Source: Candidatus Nomurabacteria bacterium
GTDB lineage: Bacteria; Patescibacteriota; Minisyncoccia; Phycocordibacterales; SBAW01
Reading direction: 5' to 3'
Assembly (NCBI GenBank): GCA_943349945.1
Contig: CALQZS010000001.1
Coordinates: 130,803-194,802 of the forward strand
DNA: 64,000 bases
Below the pieces are notes generated by a model. The model was not told the origin of the DNA. It saw nothing but the letters and a program-made list of their open reading frames with translations, and did not search any database. Positions 3,827 to 50,966 of this stretch are shown here, one piece after another (position 1 is the first letter of the stretch; each line of letters begins with the position of its first letter). A program made the position numbers and the translations under genes.

Positions 3827-3872
3827 CCCACCCGCGGGTTAAACCCGCAGGTGGAATGTGTGGTGTAATATA
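3827..3872 (+). repeat. REP-like 46-nt repeat, copy 1 (hairpin plus AATGTGTGGTGTAATATA tail)
   Basis: Sequence cccacccgcgggttaaacccgcaggtggaatgtgtggtgtaatata. Hairpin CCACCCGCGGG/CCCGCAGGTGG. It matches the copy at 4572-4617 at 43/46 positions. Confidence 0.85.
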
Positions 3873-3875
3873 CTT

Positions 3876-4556
3876 ATGTCAAATCGGGCACCCATAGCCA
3901 CGGGCGAGTGGTACCATTGCTACACTCGCGGAGTGGACAAGCGTATCGTCTTTGAAACCCGATCTGACTATGAGCGTTTCTTGGCATACCTTTATATAGG
4001 AAACGGTACCAACCTGCTCCGTCTTTCAAACATACAAGACAAGCGTTTGGTGTCCGTACTCACCAATACACGTCTGCAGCGCGGAGAGCCCTTGGTCGAC
4101 ATAGGCGCATACACCCTTATGCCTAATCATGCGCATTTTATATTACGACAAACACACGACCAGGGCATCGCCACCTTTATGCAGCGAGTTTTTACTGGAT
4201 ATACACAATACTTCAACAACAAACACGAACGGACGGGAGCGCTCTTTTCAGGAACATACAAGTCGAAACACATACTGGACGACCGCTATCTAAAGCAAGT
4301 AACTGCCTATGTATTGCTAAACCCGGTGGAATTATTTGAACCCGCATGGAAAGAAGGAGTGGGCAACTTGAACCACATCGAAAAACAGGTTCGCACCTAT
4401 CCTTATTCTAGTCTCGTTGATTTTTATGGGTCACAGCGCCCAGAAAGCAGTATCACGACAAACACGCTGCACGCGTACTATGATCAGCGTCCTAGCCTTA
4501 CAGACATGCTTGCGGACGCGCAGGCATTTTATAGAGAACACGAGCCTAAAGCTTGA
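3876..4556 (+). mobile_element. IS200/IS605-like Y1 (HUH) transposase of the REP-associated (RAYT) type
   Basis: HUH motif LMPNHAHFIL and catalytic-Tyr region GALFSGTYKSK. Flanked by 46-nt direct repeats. The ATG at 3876 is preferred to the GTG at 3858, which lies inside the repeat. Confidence 0.8.
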
Positions 4557-4571
4557 AACACCGCCCGCTCC

Positions 4572-4617
4572 CCCACCTGCGGGTTAAACCAGCAGGTGAA
4601 ATGTGTGGTGTAATATA
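4572..4617 (+). repeat. REP-like 46-nt repeat, copy 2
   Basis: Sequence cccacctgcgggttaaaccagcaggtgaaatgtgtggtgtaatata, in the same orientation as copy 1. Confidence 0.85.
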
Positions 4618-4655
4618 TTTTGAGAAGTAAAAAGGGAGGGGTTGTTTGTGTTGTG

Positions 4656-16393: not shown

Positions 16394-16795
16394 ATGCAAA
16401 ATATCGTAGAAACAGCTGTCGCAGCAGGATCATTTAAAACACTGGTCACTGCAGTGCAAGCGGCAGGATTAGTAGACACTCTATCTGGTGCAGGTCCCTT
16501 CACTGTATTTGCTCCAACTGATGAGGCTTTCGCCAAAATTCCAAAAGAGACTCTCGACGCAGTCCTTGCGGATAAAGCAAAGCTAACATCTATACTTACG
16601 TACCATGTGGTGGCAGGAAAAGTAATGGCTTCTGATGTAATGGGCCTGACTTCTGCAAAGACAGTACAAGGTGATGAAGTTAAAATAGAAACTGCAGATG
16701 GAGTTATGGTAAACGACGCCAAAGTAGTACAAACAGACATAGAATGCACAAACGGAGTAATCCATGTCATCGATTCAGTCTTGATGCCAAAATAA
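16394..16795 (+). CDS. Fasciclin (FAS1) domain protein
   Basis: Motifs [17 protein letters not shown] and [13 protein letters not shown]. Confidence 0.9.
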
Positions 16796-16813
16796 ATACA
16801 TCCGAAATAAAAA

Positions 16814-16850
16814 TAAAAAACTCTAACTTTTGTTAGAGTTTTTTATTTTT
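16814..16850. terminator. Bidirectional terminator between the convergent fasciclin and PCD genes
   Basis: A-run, then CTCTAAC-tttt-GTTAGAG, then a T-run. Confidence 0.8.
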
Positions 16851-16855
16851 ATTGA

Positions 16856-17245
16856 TTAGGCGTCTATTTTTGCCGCAAGAATAAAATCATTTTGAGAGAG
16901 TCCGTTAATTGCATGGGTGGACAGCGTGAGCTCTACAAATTTGTAGTTTTTCAGATATATGTCCGGATGATGCCCCTCTGATTCAGCCAAAACGCCAACC
17001 TTATTTACAAAAACAAGAGCTTCATTGAAGTCCTTAAAACTATATCGCTTGGCGATACTTTTAGCATCAAGCGAAATATCCCAGCCGGGAATTTGCTTGC
17101 ATAATATATCTGCCTCTATCTTTGAAAAAGGAATGACACCACCATCGCATGCCATGCATTTTTGTTGAGTCAGTGGCGAGTTAGTTTTAGGAGTAGGGGC
17201 CTGACTCTGTATAGTTGTATGTTCCATATGCTTGTAGTATAGCAA
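16856..17245 (-). CDS. Pterin-4-alpha-carbinolamine dehydratase (PCD/DCoH) with N-terminal extension
   Basis: The C-terminal ESEGHHPDIYLKNYKFVELTLSTH is the PCD signature. Confidence 0.8.
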   Translation of the reverse strand: MLYYKHMEHTTIQSQAPTPKTNSPLTQQKCMACDGGVIPFSKIEADILCKQIPGWDISLDAKSIAKRYSFKDFNEALVFVNKVGVLAESEGHHPDIYLKNYKFVELTLSTHAINGLSQNDFILAAKIDA

Positions 17246-37599: not shown

Positions 37600-37619
37600 A
37601 CTGTGGCCTTGTGCCACAA

Positions 37620-37650
37620 CCCGCCTCACAATGAGGCGGGTATTTTTTAT
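37620..37650 (+). terminator. Terminator after pyrB
   Basis: CCCGCCTCA-caa-TGAGGCGGG followed by TATTTTTTAT. Confidence 0.8.
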
Positions 37651-37709: not shown

Positions 37710-38714
37710 ATGATACTGCGCAACATCGACTTTGGCCCCTGCTTGGATGCAGCCGGCACGAGGGGATTTTTTGGCCGGGGATATCCAGCGCATCGGATCC
37801 CGGTCTTAGGACCTTGGCTGTGGAACTTTACCGGCTCGACCTTTGTGGCGAAGACCACGACCACGCCCATACAGTACGGCAATATGCCGCTCAGGGGCAG
37901 CGAGTATGACTTCGAGCCCGAAGGTTGGTTCCCTCAGTGCATTTGGTCAGACATGCAGGACCAAATAGCACTAAACGCGGTCGGCCTCTCGGGCCCAGGC
38001 GCGTACCAACTGATGGCGCAGCAAAAATGGCAAAAGCATAAAGAGCCATTTATGGTGTCGTGGGCGCCCGTGGGGCCAGAAAAGGAGTGGGAGGCTCAAG
38101 CGCGGAAGTTTGCATACAACTGGGACATATACATGTCCGGGCAAAAGCTACAGGTCGGGCTGCAGGTCAACATAAGCTGCCCCAACACAGGCACAGACCT
38201 TGCAAGACTTGTGCAACAAACACACGTGCTGCTCGATATCTTGCGCAAACTCTGCATACCACTTGTCGTCAAGCTGAATTTGCTTGTCGACCCTGCCCGC
38301 GCAGTCGAGATCTCAGAGCACCCTGCGTGCGACGCTCTGTGTGTCTCGAACACCATACCCTTTGGGGAGTTGCCCAATGAGATAGATTGGGATCAATTCT
38401 TCCCTATCGGCTCGCCGCTCGTACGACGCAACCCCGCCTTTGGTAACGGTGGACTCTCGGGCAAGCCGTTGTTGCCGTTGGTTATCGAGTGGCTGCGGCA
38501 CGCTTTTGACGCCGGGCTCAAAAAGCCAGTCAACGCCGGCGGCGGCATACTCGAAGCCAACGACGTCGACTTTTTGGTCGAAAACGCATCTCTTCGACCA
38601 GGCATCGACTCGATATTTATTGGGTCGATAGCAATACTCAACCCGCTGGGCATCCGCTCGACCATACGCCGTGCACACAAACTGCTTGGATCACAAAAAC
38701 CCGCCTCAACATGA
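37710..38714 (+). CDS. pyrD: Dihydroorotate dehydrogenase-family protein
   Basis: NISCPNTG and GGLSGKPL motifs; AGGAG RBS before the ATG at 37710. Confidence 0.7.
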   Translation: MILRNIDFGPCLDAAGTRGFFGRGYPAHRIPVLGPWLWNFTGSTFVAKTTTTPIQYGNMPLRGSEYDFEPEGWFPQCIWSDMQDQIALNAVGLSGPGAYQLMAQQKWQKHKEPFMVSWAPVGPEKEWEAQARKFAYNWDIYMSGQKLQVGLQVNISCPNTGTDLARLVQQTHVLLDILRKLCIPLVVKLNLLVDPARAVEISEHPACDALCVSNTIPFGELPNEIDWDQFFPIGSPLVRRNPAFGNGGLSGKPLLPLVIEWLRHAFDAGLKKPVNAGGGILEANDVDFLVENASLRPGIDSIFIGSIAILNPLGIRSTIRRAHKLLGSQKPAST

Positions 38715-38733
38715 GGCGGGTAATTTTTTATAT
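38700..38733 (+). terminator. Terminator after the pyrD-like gene (same hairpin module as 37620)
   Basis: CCCGCCTCA-aca-TGAGGCGGG followed by TAATTTTTTAT; the stop codon lies inside the hairpin. Confidence 0.8.
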
Positions 38734-44979: not shown

Positions 44980-46371
44980 TTAGAAATTAATTATCGCGCT
45001 GTCCCCAGCTTCGGGTGCGGTGGCTTTTACCCCCAAGTAGTCGCGCACCCGCTGCACCAAAAACCCCGACGCTGCTGGCTCCCCCATCACCACAAACGCC
45101 TGCTCAAGCACGCCGCCTCCTTGCGGTGGGTTGGCCACACTGTTTACAAACTCAAGCAGCTGTTCGCTGTCCATGTGTGCCGAATAGCCATACATAGCAG
45201 CTACGGTGCAGCGCACCGCCACTTCCTCGCCCCGGATTTCTACTTTTTTTGCACCCTCGATGAGCTTGCGGCCCAAACTCCCCGCAGACTGGTAGCCCAC
45301 AATAAGCAGCGTCGAGTGCTCGTCGGGCAAGAGCGCCGCCTCGTGCGCCACAACCCGGCCGCCGTTGCTCATACCCGAGCCTGCCAAAATAATCTTCGGC
45401 CCCGGTTTGTTACGCATGTTTTCCGACTCGGCAGCACCTTCGACAAACTGCAACTCAGGAAAGTCGAAAATATGCTCGCCTCCTGCAATGCGCTTTTGCA
45501 TCTCGTCGCTAAAGTATTGGGGATGTGCCAGGTAGGCAGCGGTGATTTTTTGTGCCAAGGGTGAGTCCAGATACACCGGCATAGACGGCACGCGTTTTTC
45601 TAAAAAGAGCGAGCGGATTTCAAACAGCAAGTCTTGCGTACGCTCGGTCGAAAACGCAGGGATAAGCAGCGTGCCGCCTTTTGCAGCCACGTTTTCTATA
45701 TGGTTTTCCAATATATCACGCCTGTGTGCATCCTCTTGCCGCACACGGTCTCCGTACACACTCTCGACCACCAGGTGGGCTATGTCCCCCGGGACCTCTG
45801 TCTTGGCCAACAGCGGCGAGTTACCCCCGCCCAAGTCGCCCGTAAAGGCCACCTTGCTGCTGTCTGGCTGCGCCTTGCGGCTGAGCACCGCTATGGCCGA
45901 GCCCAAGATGTGCCCCGCATCAAACAGCTCCAAGGTTACCCCGCCGCCCACATCCTCGAGCTGGTGGTAGGGTATCCCCTTCCATTGCCGCATAGCCTGT
46001 GCGATATCTTTTTCTGTATACAAAGGCTCTTTGCCCAAGCGCTCTGCAGTGCGCGCAGCAAGCTCCATAGCGTCCAGCAAGAGCGGCTCCGCGAGCGCGC
46101 GGGTAGCCTCGGTGGATATAATGGGCCCCCGGAAACCGTCTTTTACTAGTTTGGGGATACGGCCAATATGGTCGATGTGTGCGTGCGTGTTTATAAGCAC
46201 CGACACTTCTGCCGGGTTATACGGAAAAGGGTCCCAGTTGGTGTTTTCGAAAGAGTGCTTGCCCTGGAAGAGCCCACAGTCGACGGCAATTTTGACCTCT
46301 CCTGTATCGAGCAAAAAGTTAGACCCCGTTACCGACCCTGCCCCGCCGTAAAAGTATATGGTTGATTGCAT
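44980..46371 (-). CDS. MBL-fold beta-CASP ribonuclease
   Basis: HAHIDHIG metallo-beta-lactamase motif near the N-terminus; 463 aa with beta-CASP-like layout. Confidence 0.75.
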   Translation of the reverse strand: MQSTIYFYGGAGSVTGSNFLLDTGEVKIAVDCGLFQGKHSFENTNWDPFPYNPAEVSVLINTHAHIDHIGRIPKLVKDGFRGPIISTEATRALAEPLLLDAMELAARTAERLGKEPLYTEKDIAQAMRQWKGIPYHQLEDVGGGVTLELFDAGHILGSAIAVLSRKAQPDSSKVAFTGDLGGGNSPLLAKTEVPGDIAHLVVESVYGDRVRQEDAHRRDILENHIENVAAKGGTLLIPAFSTERTQDLLFEIRSLFLEKRVPSMPVYLDSPLAQKITAAYLAHPQYFSDEMQKRIAGGEHIFDFPELQFVEGAAESENMRNKPGPKIILAGSGMSNGGRVVAHEAALLPDEHSTLLIVGYQSAGSLGRKLIEGAKKVEIRGEEVAVRCTVAAMYGYSAHMDSEQLLEFVNSVANPPQGGGVLEQAFVVMGEPAASGFLVQRVRDYLGVKATAPEAGDSAIINF

Positions 46372-46418
46372 CAGTGCATTATACGTTTTTTACTACCCTT
46401 CGACTATTCTTTAGGCAC

Positions 46419-46578
46419 AAAAAAACCCGCACCAGGAGCCCGGTGCGGACTTTTTTCGGACTCCGGAAGCAAGTGTCTACCGTGTATTAGGTGGGTGCTC
46501 TAAGCGGTACACCACGGTGCCCCGCCACAGCGAGCTCCCGGTAGATTCACTTAAGGACATTTGCCTCCGGGGTCCTGC
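46419..46578 (-). ncRNA. Candidate long-hairpin ncRNA of about 160 nt, unclassified
   Basis: An extended -10 (TGaTACAAT, 46583-46591 on minus). A closing helix 46563-46575 with 46458-46470 (12/13 pairs) plus inner helices. Terminator CCGCACC...GGTGCGG followed by T7. Confidence 0.5.
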
Positions 46579-46620
46579 CGCTATTGTATCAAATTTTTAC
46601 TACAATCCCCCACCCCTTCT

Positions 46621-46645
46621 AACCCACAAGTCTGACTTGTGGGTT
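46621..46645. repeat. 25-nt palindromic REP, copy 1 (central T)
   Basis: aacccacaagtcTgacttgtgggtt. Confidence 0.9.
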
Positions 46646-46675
46646 TAGGTTTTACCCGAGCTATAATCTATAGAC

Positions 46676-47539
46676 TTATTTTGTCACAGCAGCCTTTCGC
46701 ATATATACAGAGACGTCTCCATATACGCCCCCAAGCAATGCTCCATCTTTTCCTGATGCCACCAGAAGTTCTATGTTTTTATCTTTAAGGGCAGCAAGAA
46801 TTGCATCGCCACGCACATCTCCCAGTGTGGCGTACATGCGACGAAATGCCTCAAAATCTTTAATAAAACAATCGCCCCCAGCCCCACGTCCTCCACTATG
46901 TACAGGGTTAGTGTGGCTAGCACCGACACGAGGGTCATGCACCAACGCATCGCGCACTCCTTCCCAGTCTCCTCCTTTCGCTTGCACCAGGTCATAGAGC
47001 AAGTTAGTAAACATGACTTTGGTGTATAAAAAACAATTGCCTGCATATTTGACCAACTCTGCATCACAGGCCAAAAGTATACGCGCGTACGGCGCCTCAG
47101 GCAGCACACTAAGCACTGCGCGGGCTTTTTCTTGGTACACAGCAGAGTCTACGGGGATTCCTACAATATTACGATGAGGGTGCGCTGCATCATGCGCCGC
47201 CGTAGCCTCGGTCAAAAACTCAGGGCTGTGTAGCACAAAAATGTCAGGGTATATTTGCTGAAACATCTCTGTCGTGCCTGGCAGTATGGTTGACTTAATG
47301 ACCGCCACTTTTCCTTTGCCCACAAGAGGCAGTACGCGCGCAATAATGGAGCTGTCGAACCCCTCTGGAGTGGTAGGGGTTGGCACCGCAATAAACACAA
47401 TGTCGCACCGGGCTATACGATCTTTGTTTGCTCGATATGGCTCTTCAAGCGCGTAACGTACAACCGTATAGCCACGGTTTTCAAAATCATCTGCATAATG
47501 TCTGCCGATCCACCCCTGCCCAATAAATCCTATGTGCAT
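46676..47539 (-). CDS. UDP-glucose/GDP-mannose dehydrogenase-family protein (short)
   Basis: N-terminal GFIGQGWIG Rossmann motif and GGDCFIKD catalytic-Cys motif. Confidence 0.6.
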   Translation of the reverse strand: MHIGFIGQGWIGRHYADDFENRGYTVVRYALEEPYRANKDRIARCDIVFIAVPTPTTPEGFDSSIIARVLPLVGKGKVAVIKSTILPGTTEMFQQIYPDIFVLHSPEFLTEATAAHDAAHPHRNIVGIPVDSAVYQEKARAVLSVLPEAPYARILLACDAELVKYAGNCFLYTKVMFTNLLYDLVQAKGGDWEGVRDALVHDPRVGASHTNPVHSGGRGAGGDCFIKDFEAFRRMYATLGDVRGDAILAALKDKNIELLVASGKDGALLGGVYGDVSVYMRKAAVTK

Positions 47540-47596
47540 TCCCTAGTAACTCGACGACTGAACACAAAGTTACTCGTCGACACCAAACCAGTGTCC

Positions 47597-47621
47597 AACC
47601 CACAAGTCAGACTTGTGGGTT
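47597..47621. repeat. 25-nt palindromic REP, copy 2 (central A)
   Basis: aacccacaagtcAgacttgtgggtt, 1 nt from the RAYT stop. Confidence 0.9.
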
Positions 47622-47622
47622 A

Positions 47623-48321
47623 TTATTCCAGAATCGCCAAACTGCTCAATTCTGGCACACGTCCCAAGATTAAATCTTGAGCATTCGTACGAAAATCTGC
47701 CGGTGAACAAAATATTTCTGCGAGAATATCCTTTTCAACAACTGCCGCATATATAGAGTTTTCTCCAGCATACTCTTTTAAGCTCGAAAAAGGATACGTA
47801 TCGACAGCCCACTTCCACGCCTCATTAAAATTTTTTGCAGCAGTCACATATCCCCCTGGATATAATTCGAACACATTTTTTACTACTATATACGGGACCA
47901 CGTAACGCAAATGTCGGTCTGTCTCAACTGTACGACTACGATATGCACCTTGGAAAATACTACCTCGCTCACTATATTTTTCGTTAAAATATCGGGACAT
48001 ACTGCCACAAACACTTTGCATAAATCGCGCCACCCCTCTTTCTTGAGTTTCTTTAAGCAAAAGGTGGAAATGGTTCGGCATCAACGTCCAAGCAAGTACC
48101 TTTACTAATGGTCGACGTTCTGGCCAAACAGCAGGGCGTTCAAACATTCCCAGATCACAAATATCTCTCTCCCAAAAATCGGAGCGATGTTCGTCGTTTA
48201 AATAATAAAGGAGTTTTACAAAACGCCGCTTATCAGCCTCATCACGAGTGATAGGCATGCCGCGCGCTCCGCGTTTAACAACATGAACAAAAGAACCCAC
48301 TTCATGAGGTTCCACTCTCAT
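47623..48321 (-). mobile_element. IS200/IS605-like Y1 (HUH) transposase of the RAYT type, second copy
   Basis: LMPNHFHLLL HUH motif and GSIFQGAYRSR Tyr motif; bracketed by palindrome copies 2 and 3. Confidence 0.8.
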
Positions 48322-48346
48322 ACCCTTATAGTAGCCCCAAAATCTA

Positions 48347-48370
48347 AACCCACAAGTCAGACTTGTGGGT
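48347..48370. repeat. Palindromic REP, copy 3 (central A)
   Basis: aacccacaagtcAgacttgtgggt. Confidence 0.9.
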
Positions 48371-48377
48371 GCAAAAA

Positions 48378-48977
48378 CTACTCGTCGATGCCGAAGCGCT
48401 TGTACTTGAAGATGGTTTGTTTACCAAACCAGTGCTCGATTTCGTGCTTTGCTTCCTCTGGAGTCTCAGACGCATGGACCAAGTTGTAGACTGCGCGTTT
48501 TTCGATGTTTGCAGAAATAGCAGAGTCTGCCGAGTAGTCGCCGCGGATGGTGCCCATCTCTGCCAAGTACGGCATAGTAGGCCCCACGATTTTGCGCACC
48601 ATGTCCACCGCGTGCACGCCCTGCACCACCATCTTGACCATAGGGGCCGAGATCATAAAGTCGATAAGCCAGCCGCGTACCACTTTACCAATTTTAAGAA
48701 GGTCGTCGGTACCAAAGTCTTTTTTCACATCATGTCCGTACTTTTGGTAGGTGCCGGTTGTCTTTTCGCCAATGCGCTTGAGCCACGCCTCGTCTTTGGG
48801 ATAGTGTTTGTCCATCTCGGCCTTAGACGGCTGGAACATCTCTAGAGCTACGACTTTGAGGTCGCGCTGCTCCATGCGTTTAATGATCTCGCCCGTGAGC
48901 CCTTTGCGTACGCCGTCGGGCTTTATGAGCACAAAAGTTTTTTCCTCCTTGGGATGTTGCATGCGAGCACTATACAA
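48378..48977 (-). CDS. ndk: Nucleoside diphosphate kinase (with an internal insertion)
   Basis: FVLIKPDGV and NLVHASE motifs. Confidence 0.8.
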   Translation of the reverse strand: MYSARMQHPKEEKTFVLIKPDGVRKGLTGEIIKRMEQRDLKVVALEMFQPSKAEMDKHYPKDEAWLKRIGEKTTGTYQKYGHDVKKDFGTDDLLKIGKVVRGWLIDFMISAPMVKMVVQGVHAVDMVRKIVGPTMPYLAEMGTIRGDYSADSAISANIEKRAVYNLVHASETPEEAKHEIEHWFGKQTIFKYKRFGIDE

Positions 48978-49767: not shown

Positions 49768-50367
49768 CTACGCGAGCCCTAGTTTGGCCAAAATGTCGGC
49801 GTGGATTGCTTCGACAGTGCGCTCGCCGTCTATGTCGACCACACGGTACAGTGGGTTTGCACGGAACCACTCGATGTTAGGCATCGTATCTTTGCGCGAC
49901 CAAGCAAGCCGTTTGCGGATACTCTCTTCGGTGTCGTCATGGCGGCCGCGCTTAAGCAGCCGGGCAACTGCCTCGTCGTCCGAAATGTTGATGCACACCA
50001 CCGTAGGCATGTCGCGTTTATAAAACTCCACCAAGGCCGAGTCCAGCGTAGGCACCTGTGTGGCCGTGCGCGGAAAGCCGTCGATGATCAAATCCTCCTC
50101 TCCGGTGTGCATAGTGTCCATCAGATATTGTGCAAACAAACTTGCACTTATGGCGTACGGTATCAAACCACCCTGCTGCAATATTTCATTCGTTAGCCGC
50201 CCCGTGTAGTCGTCTTTTGTAGCAAGCTCGCGCAGCTGTTTGCCCATCTCGAAGTGGACTATTTTGCGCGTCGCATCTTGCGCCACCATTGCCTCTTTAA
50301 GCAGCTGTATTTGCGTCCCCTTGCCCGAGCCTTGTGGCCCTAAAAAAATTGCAGTGAGTTTGTTCAT
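49768..50367 (-). CDS. adk: Adenylate kinase
   Basis: GPQGSGKGTQ P-loop; no Zn lid; overlaps gmk by 4 nt. Confidence 0.9.
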   Translation of the reverse strand: MNKLTAIFLGPQGSGKGTQIQLLKEAMVAQDATRKIVHFEMGKQLRELATKDDYTGRLTNEILQQGGLIPYAISASLFAQYLMDTMHTGEEDLIIDGFPRTATQVPTLDSALVEFYKRDMPTVVCINISDDEAVARLLKRGRHDDTEESIRKRLAWSRKDTMPNIEWFRANPLYRVVDIDGERTVEAIHADILAKLGLA

Positions 50368-50966
50368 GCGTGTATATTGTACCCTTCTTTTTCAAGAATA
50401 GAGATCGTTGCCAGGACGGCATCTTCTAATTTACCGTTTGCGTTTACGACCTCATAATCATAAAAAGATCGCTCATCGCGCACCTCACTCACTGCATTTT
50501 CGTATCTTTTTGCGATTTCCTCCTCCGACATTTCTGGATTGCGGGCACGAAGCCGTGCTGGCAACTCATTTAAATCACCTGGCAAAATAAAAATGGTAGT
50601 TGCGTTGTAGCGCTCTTTATAAAACTTCGCCCCTACAATATCAGGGTTCACTAGGACAATGTTTCCTTTTGCTAATTTATCTGCCAAATCTGGCCCATAG
50701 GCGCCGTAGTACGTATCTCGATTTTCAATATACGTTACTTCAAGTATCTCTCCTGCTTGCTGTTTTTGTAAAAAATCTTCTTTGCTAAAAAAATAGTAGT
50801 CTTTACCATGTTCTTCTCCGGCGCGAGGAGTGCGCGTGGTTGCCGTAACTAGTCGGGCAGCATTTGGGCATCTATCGATTATCGCTTTTGTGATAGTGCT
50901 CTCGCCGCTCCCGGTCGGCCCTGCTATCACCGCAATCTGTTTTGGTTTAGCAGTAGGAATAGTCAT
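50364..50966 (-). CDS. gmk: Guanylate kinase-like protein
   Basis: GPTGSGEST P-loop and TTRTPRAGEEHGKDYYF. Confidence 0.8.
   Translation of the reverse strand: MTIPTAKPKQIAVIAGPTGSGESTITKAIIDRCPNAARLVTATTRTPRAGEEHGKDYYFFSKEDFLQKQQAGEILEVTYIENRDTYYGAYGPDLADKLAKGNIVLVNPDIVGAKFYKERYNATTIFILPGDLNELPARLRARNPEMSEEEIAKRYENAVSEVRDERSFYDYEVVNANGKLEDAVLATISILEKEGYNIHA

Follow-up and report, generated by a model that had tools for sequence, protein, structure and literature searches.

Hairpins of the classical repetitive extragenic palindromic (REP) sequences have at their foot a conserved tetranucleotide, GT[AG]G, and to our knowledge the systems formed by REPs and the REP-associated tyrosine transposases (RAYTs) have been studied almost only in Proteobacteria. 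Those of Escherichia coli and Pseudomonas are known as REPtrons or TnpA-REP (RAYT) systems (Nunvar 2010, PMC2817692; Bertels & Rainey 2011, PMC3116915; Quentin 2018, PMC6006769), and an E. coli RAYT bound to a REP hairpin is available as structure 4ER8. Single-copy, vertically inherited behavior has been described for RAYTs, and a high frequency of the flanking repeat, measured on 16-mers, is one of their core features (Bertels 2017, PMC5581495). RAYT-like genes with atypical flanking hairpins that lack GT[AG]G form subclasses 2.6 and 3 of the 12 TnpA-Y1 subclasses (PMC6006769); neither Parcubacteria nor Patescibacteria came up in a text search of that paper, and no description of REP/RAYT systems in the Candidate Phyla Radiation (CPR) was found in the literature searched. 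Here we describe a locus in a 64-kb stretch of DNA from a Candidatus Nomurabacteria bacterium (contig CALQZS010000001.1), referred to as the window, whose coordinates are used throughout. In this locus the gene for a 232-aa Y1 HUH transposase, RAYT2 (47623..48321, minus strand), is bracketed by copies of a 25-nt palindrome and stands with them at the 3' end of ndk. It is probably a REP/RAYT ("REPtron"-like) module of a Patescibacteria (Paceibacteria-type) genome whose cassette was placed at the ndk 3' end, a reading built on the observed association of the hairpin with the RAYT2 family, the motifs and fold of the protein, the absence of the cassette from relatives, and the dispersal of the hairpin.

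The locus shares with the REPtrons a lone gene for a Y1 HUH transposase with its cognate hairpin on both sides, further occurrences of that hairpin at other sites, a fixed and vertically inherited position in most lineages of the RAYT2 family, a protein fold that matches 4ER8, and the presence of two RAYT/hairpin pairs in one genome, a pattern already described (PMC6006769). It differs from them in that its hairpin, a perfect palindrome of 25 nt, lacks the GT[AG]G tag, in that the apparent copy number is a handful and not hundreds, and in that RAYT2 is longer, having a conserved HxxKRGxRG segment at the N terminus and a helical extension at the C terminus, and scores below the NCBIfam cut-off for RAYTs. 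Flanking structures that lack the GTAG tag and have copies elsewhere in the genome are also found in subclasses 2.6 and 3, although these were described mainly in Bacteroidetes and other phyla and the resemblance of RAYT2 to them is one of hairpin features. With IS200, IS608, and ISDra2 it has in common the Y1 HUH fold and motifs, a lone tnpA, a similar cassette size, end hairpins, and a terminator-like upstream hairpin; it differs from these elements by its single copy, its syntenic orthologues, its identical end palindromes, the solo hairpins, the absence of tnpB, and the lack of a match to IS200 models. The module is a fairly ordinary one in a little-studied host, unusual mainly in that the gene appears to have left its usual slot.

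The palindrome, AACCCACAAGTC-N-GACTTGTGGGT(T) (also written AACCCACAAGTC-N-GACTTGTGGGTT), was searched as the pattern AACCCACAAGTCNGACTTGTGGGTT and found three times in the window, at 46621-46645 (REP1; centre T, no mismatch), 47597-47621 (REP2; no strand assigned, centre A, no mismatch), and 48347-48371 (REP3; minus strand, centre A, one mismatch, the final base being G instead of T, with 24 of the 25 bases palindromic). No further copy was present in the 64 kb at up to three mismatches, and dinucleotide-preserving shuffles gave an expectation of 0.00 matches by chance. An original prediction, made from the letters of the stretch, had placed three copies at 46621, 47597, and 48347; all three were confirmed, the third running to 48371. 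Folded as single-stranded DNA (ssDNA), each copy forms an 11-bp stem (10 bp in REP3) with a 3-nt loop (dG approximately -10 to -11 kcal/mol; z approximately -6). REP2 ends 1 nt from the RAYT2 stop codon (47623-47625), as had been claimed, and REP3 lies 25 nt upstream of the RAYT2 start codon (48319-48321) and 6 nt downstream of the ndk stop codon. On the minus strand the REP3 hairpin is followed by the tail TTAGATTTT (48339-48346), and the solo copy REP1 (46621..46653, plus strand), located between a dehydrogenase gene and a small-RNA promoter, likewise consists of its hairpin and a tail, TAGGTTTT; REP2 is without the 8-nt tail. Positions 46622-46653 and 48339-48370 are 32-nt inverted repeats with 97% complementarity, each comprising a hairpin and a tail TAGRTTTT, and their likeness spans the centre base and the 8-nt tail and stops at the outer boundary of the stem. 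REP1 is a separate inverted duplicate of REP3 that looks as a copied "hairpin plus tail" would, and relatives lack it. The predicted inversion of the copy beyond the dehydrogenase gene is thus borne out by the flanks of copies 1 and 3. The centre base, which had been proposed to mark orientation, proved unreliable, and we dropped it as a rule: that of REP2 is flipped between the window and strain L006 (98% identical; loci and strains are designated by L numbers), and the combination seen most often among eight RAYT loci is a T in the upstream and an A in the downstream copy, so that the flanking copies are usually mutually inverted.

The RAYT2 open reading frame (ORF) is intact, and its product matches Pfam PF01797 (Y1_Tnp) with an E value of 2e-9. 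The HUH motif N83-H84-F85-H86 and the candidate catalytic tyrosine Y144, which stands in the context Y-I-V-V-K-N in RAYT2 and Y-[IV]-x-V-K-N family-wide, are invariant in an alignment of 27 family sequences. The best and only NCBIfam match of RAYT2, and likewise of RAYT1, the first RAYT of the window, is REP_Tyr_transpos (NF047646, a RAYT equivalog), and no IS200-type TnpA model of NCBIfam was matched by either protein at E <= 0.01. Because searches of the PDB by sequence were weak, a fold search was needed. With an AlphaFold (AF2) model of RAYT2 (pLDDT 83.8), the top 22 matches in the PDB were all Y1 transposases, among which 4ER8 ranked first both by query TM-score (0.42) and by alignment length. 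The Y1_Tnp match, the invariant HUH motif and Y144, the Y1 fold, and the tight bracketing by a cognate palindrome agree with the prediction that this ORF encodes a RAYT.

Orthologues with 53-75% identity to RAYT2 occur in eight lineages and are flanked by the same hairpin core. In the scan of metagenome contigs described below, palindromes paired approximately 744 nt apart enclose orthologues with 57-65% identity to RAYT2 of the window, and orthologues fetched through the protein database have the same layout. The exact core stands on both sides at L010, L025, L038, L057, L061, L063, L035, and L049, of which L063 came from the protein database; this exact 21-nt core is kept across at least eight lineages though their RAYT genes differ by 14-30% in nucleotides. 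Among the database-derived orthologues, L066 and L067 (60-64% identical) have hairpin variants in which the inner core ACAAGTC-N-GACTTGT is preserved, often as an upstream doublet, and in all orthologues the distance from the stop codon to the downstream hairpin is 0-3 nt. The slot of the gene is the same in eight distinct lineages (<=86% nucleotide identity), with the order transketolase-PfkB-L25-~430-aa protein (hyp427)-RAYT-L31-RF1, and the orthologues are single copy, syntenic, and housekeeping-like in position. The window copy is the exception, and judging by gene order it would be a relocated one.

In the window, RAYT2 instead lies between two copies of the ndk 3' end. The ndk ORF (48378..48962, minus strand) is intact, and its final 57 nt (HWFGKQTIFKYKRFGIDE-stop; 48378..48434, minus strand) form copy A, while copy B is a 24-nt relic (47570..47593, minus strand) that reads HWFG/VDE-TAA and lacks 33 nt lying between TTYGGY near-repeats. 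Between the two lies an apparently inserted cassette of 784 nt (47594..48377, minus strand), consisting of TTTTTG, REP3, RAYT2, REP2, and GGA. The relic is followed by a 30-nt spacer (47540-47569) and then by the start of the dehydrogenase (DH) gene, and it aligns both to the ndk 3' end and downstream bases of L071 and to the ndk-DH junction of L083, GACGAGTAACTT. The complete order is therefore ndk(complete)-TTTTTG-REP3-25 nt-RAYT-1 nt-REP2-GGA-ndk relic-30 nt-DH-30 nt-REP1-27 nt-small-RNA promoter. Since DH follows ndk in L083 and in the window the ndk relic precedes DH by 30 nt, the inserted unit would be REP3-RAYT-REP2, without DH. No cassette is present where ndk meets DH in L083 or where ndk meets the beta-CASP (bCASP) gene in L068-L079. 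Compared to L006, the tract that contains the cassette and both ndk 3' copies (47558-48413) has 3 differences in 856 nt, one of them the REP2 centre, and within it the RAYT2 gene differs at only 2 of its 699 bases (99.7% identity), whereas ndk, map, bCASP, and DH are 95.3-97.5% identical, with mostly synonymous differences. As the cassette is less diverged from L006 than its flanks, it seems younger than its surroundings, which is supportive but not decisive because divergence along the region is patchy, and this suggests a recent spread of the cassette within the population. It thus appears that a hairpin-gene-hairpin cassette came in at the 3' end of ndk and that 57 nt of this gene were duplicated in the event, so that ndk was kept intact.

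By analogy with IS608, ISDra2, and the E. coli TnpA-REP, RAYT2 would be a Y1 HUH ssDNA endonuclease/transposase whose cognate substrate is the 25-nt palindrome hairpin; it would bind the hairpin in ssDNA and cut and rejoin at its foot by means of Y144 and an HUH-bound metal, and this activity may copy or maintain the hairpins. The cassette may have arrived by recombination or a template switch at hairpins, not by classical transposition, or else by integration of a circle carrying a 3' segment of ndk, and we prefer neither route over the other. On arrival the 57-nt ndk tail would have been duplicated, leaving an intact ndk on one side and a relic that then decayed on the other. REP1 would be an inverted copy of the upstream hairpin and its 8-nt tail, placed beyond DH. 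REP3 and REP1 score as terminator-like, the former on the minus strand directly after ndk and the latter on the plus strand, and may double as transcription terminators. A broader proposal, which we regard as possible but rather doubtful, is that the mobile unit in Patescibacteria is a single perfect hairpin of 21-25 nt and not a REP doublet (REPIN), that it inserts in frame into essential genes and even enters RAYT genes or the loop of a second copy, and that the RAYT gene can relocate as a hairpin-bounded cassette by hairpin-primed copying that duplicates tens of target bases. If this were true, such copying would be a route of RAYT mobility undescribed for classical REPtrons.

We determined how far the hairpin is dispersed by scanning two collections for exact matches, contigs of species-representative genomes with the 23-nt palindrome and metagenome contigs with the 21-nt core; the genome of the window itself lies outside both. 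The genome scan gave five single matches, one of which (in TrpB, peptide DPQVRLVG) is probably a native coding coincidence, and the metagenome scan gave 54 loci; the metagenome Ga0209542 holds approximately 30 palindrome loci over several genomes. Together the matches form 36 site clusters, approximately 27 of which are not beside a RAYT and lie in other Patescibacteria, so that the palindrome is not confined to this locus, a point in favor of the original reading of a RAYT with a cognate palindrome. Viral contigs gave no match, hence no sign of a phage vector. The motif TAGR 1-2 nt past the stem was seen only at RAYT-adjacent copies and REP1.

About half of the sites that are not beside a RAYT lie inside long ORFs, in frame, where the palindrome encodes THKSDLWV, PQVRLVG, or PTS(Q/L)TCG according to frame, and a stop codon arises in only 1 of the 12 combinations of frame and centre base. 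Host genes confirmed with Pfam are those for TrmD, a class-V aminotransferase (cysteine desulfurase-like), TopA (doublet), MurC, ArgRS, MnmA (doublet), GatB (doublet), ValRS, PurL (in a linker), and ThrC, and the palindrome was identified by eye in those for transketolase and Ddl. The intragenic loci, with single or doublet palindromes, are L001, L002, L005/L058, L009, L011/L056, L012/L040/L053, L015, L017, L019/L021/L031/L041/L043, L022/L024, L034, L036, and L045. At orthologous intragenic sites the exact core is retained between proteins that are 57-83% identical, a result biased by a search that demanded an exact match. Between the transketolases of L034, with the palindrome, and L061 (74% aa identity) there is a variable loop with a net difference of 12 nt, within which insert length and target duplication are indefinable. 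The RAYT2 palindrome also flanks a distant RAYT (L026:2170-2975, also L050 and L062) that is 26% identical to RAYT2 and 35% identical to RAYT1, and a third palindrome lies in frame directly after the HUH motif of this protein (PNHFHLYVTF-SHKSDLW-AENS; L026 and L030:997). At L052:8521-8557 and L059:8773-8809, approximately 200 nt from a RAYT2-like gene, one copy sits exactly within the loop of another, CCACAAGT-C[CCACAAGTCTGACTTGTGG]G-ACTTGTGG, a possible hint that the loop is targeted or cleaved. The in-frame intragenic hairpins are a new instance of an already reported phenomenon, since intragenic REPs, often dimers, and in-frame Rickettsia palindromic elements are on record (Di Nocera 2013, PMC3733652). 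Like these, they are short palindromes in frame in intact genes, often as dimers; unlike these, they are only 21-25 nt long, add 4-8 codons per unit, occur in Patescibacteria, and match RAYT-flanking hairpins in sequence. None is intragenic in the window.

Several observations weigh against taking the locus for a REP/RAYT module. RAYT2 and RAYT1 score 37.7 and 38.3 bits against NF047646, below its curated threshold of 80, and PDB sequence searches with the RAYT2 protein or the 27-sequence profile reached only the ISDra2 TnpA, weakly (E 0.015 to approximately 0.02), and did not reach 4ER8. The flanks of the 36 site clusters contain no GT[AG]G tag, only A/T extension of the stem. The apparent copy number is low, where a RAYT would be expected to have an abundant flanking repeat: three metagenome contigs of 265-333 kb gave one match-bearing stretch each, a 588-kb contig gave two, both beside its RAYT, and the window holds only the three local copies. 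The direction of the event, probably a gain here and not a loss elsewhere, rests on parsimony and on the canonical slot of the orthologues. In addition, the chemistry of Y1 (IS200/IS605) transposition does not give rise to a target duplication of 57 nt, which leaves the route of insertion unexplained. The same duplication tells against the cassette being an autonomous IS200-like insertion sequence (tnpA only, approximately 0.78 kb) transposed by "peel and paste" into the ndk 3' end, which we consider unlikely. The size and layout of the cassette, in which a lone Y1 tnpA is preceded by a hairpin/terminator and followed by another hairpin, fit such an element, as do its absence from relatives and its far lower divergence than the flanks between two strains, and the fold-match E values of the IS608, ISDra2, and IS200 TnpA proteins are similar to that of the E. 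coli RAYT 4ER8. However, the window has a single copy of the cassette where an insertion sequence is expected in several, the orthologues occupy one syntenic slot in eight lineages despite 14-30% nucleotide divergence, a vertical and housekeeping-like behavior, and the same perfect palindrome stands at both ends, where such an element would have a left and a right end that differ, with guide sequences. A tnpB gene is absent, no IS200 model of NCBIfam was matched while the RAYT model was the best match, and the hairpins stand alone at approximately 27 other sites. Still less probable is that the palindromes are bidirectional terminators, or structural motifs conserved by chance, with no enzymatic tie to the transposase. 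REP1 and REP3 do resemble terminators, having a hairpin and a T-rich tail, and A-runs and T-runs flank many of the solo copies in other genomes, but an identical 21-nt core brackets the orthologues across the diverged lineages and lies in frame in at least 10 housekeeping genes, where a terminator would harm, and terminators are normally not conserved in sequence across genes and genomes.

The original prediction had further noted that the palindromes bracket a sugar dehydrogenase gene. Literally they do: a gene of the UDP-glucose/GDP-mannose dehydrogenase family (46676..47539, minus strand; 287 aa, with N-terminal and central domains and no C-terminal domain) lies between REP1 and REP2. The implication that it is cargo did not hold, and a composite REP-bounded mobile unit running from REP1 to REP3 (46621-48371) with DH inside it is the least probable of the explanations weighed here and already contradicted. 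In its favor, the outer copies are 32-nt inverted repeats, and the closest relatives (L068-L073) have neither DH nor RAYT between ndk and beta-CASP. In L068-L079, whose NDK is 95-97% identical, the order is S8...L15-SecY-Gmk-Adk-Map-NDK-[small RNA]-bCASP-SLOG-L20-IF3, with no RAYT, DH, or palindrome in this region. Against it, DH is present at the same position in L083, where the order is Map-NDK-30 nt-DH-DUF6159-bCASP, and likewise upstream of bCASP in L080-82, and the window retains the ndk stop codon and the 30-nt spacer before DH. Its identity to the L083 and L080-82 genomes is 77%, equal to the divergence of its neighbors (78% for both SecY and SLOG in the same comparison), as expected for vertical descent. 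DH never adjoins the RAYT orthologues in the loci examined, and compared to L006 it is normally diverged (97.5% identity), unlike the RAYT cassette. DH thus appears to be a native, vertically inherited neighbor of ndk outside the mobile unit, and the REP/RAYT module would comprise the cassette from REP3 to REP2. The 1.78-kb difference from L071, which we had considered as one insertion, is made up of DH, ancestral and lost in the L071 group, and the RAYT cassette. We also considered DH as a truncated pseudogene; this was rejected in view of a large, conserved family in Patescibacteria (>100 clusters, 65-77% identity) whose members are approximately 283 aa long (280-290), and of 15 synonymous versus 5 nonsynonymous changes relative to L006.

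The basic picture of RAYTs and REPs is unchanged by this locus, which offers a natural experiment in which a RAYT family fixed in eight lineages is found in a new place in one. The filled site, ancestral-like junctions, and a relic of the target are all available, making it possible to address whether, and how, a RAYT gene can move. The family data indicate that in tiny, gene-dense genomes the hairpins survive mostly inside genes, and such intragenic hairpins matter for CPR annotation and protein alignments.

The other RAYT of the window, RAYT1 (3876..4556, plus strand; Pfam Y1_Tnp E 1e-5), shares 30% identity with RAYT2 at the protein level. It is bracketed by 49-nt direct repeats (3827-3875 and 4572-4620) that are 92% identical, the upstream one ending at the RAYT1 start codon, and each unit consists of an 11-bp hairpin with the loop TTAAA and a 23-nt tail, the hairpin differing from the RAYT2 palindrome. 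The RAYT1 cassette (3827-4620) is 794 nt long, about the size of the RAYT2 cassette. The predictions that the first RAYT has a repeat of its own and that the genome hosts two RAYT/hairpin pairs thus stand. No further copy of the RAYT1 repeat was found within the 64-kb window, and its hairpin was not found in 557 kb of other fetched loci, which is little informative because these come mostly from other organisms.

The RAYT2 locus had also been taken to mark the point at which the synteny of the ribosomal cluster is broken. In all relatives examined, map is followed by ndk instead of infA-rpmJ-rpsM, and relatives without a RAYT here have ndk and beta-CASP after map as well; the break is therefore ancestral and was not caused by the RAYT locus. 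A guanylate kinase gene (50364-50966) between secY and adk is also common to all relatives examined, including L068-L074. A structured RNA of approximately 118 nt (46458-46575, minus strand) lies between ndk/DH and the beta-CASP (RNase J-like) gene, with a promoter at approximately 46583-46593 that has an extended -10 box (TGnTAyAmT) and an intrinsic terminator at 46419-46456. It stays upstream of beta-CASP whichever gene precedes it and is nearly identical in relatives whose coding genes are approximately 84% identical, and in a set of 7 sequences 8 of its base pairs show covariation. Rfam has no match for it: searches of the window and of 46350-46680 returned only the tmRNA, tRNAs, and terminator-like noise. 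Two other repeats were seen in the window. A 54-nt inverted repeat (16774-16885; 76% complementary, 4-nt spacer) lies in an AT-rich stretch, and a hairpin resembling a terminator, AACCCGCCTCA-N-TGAGGCGGGT with a T-run after it, occurs as two 31-nt copies (37618-37648 and 38698-38728) that are 90% identical and form a separate small repeat.

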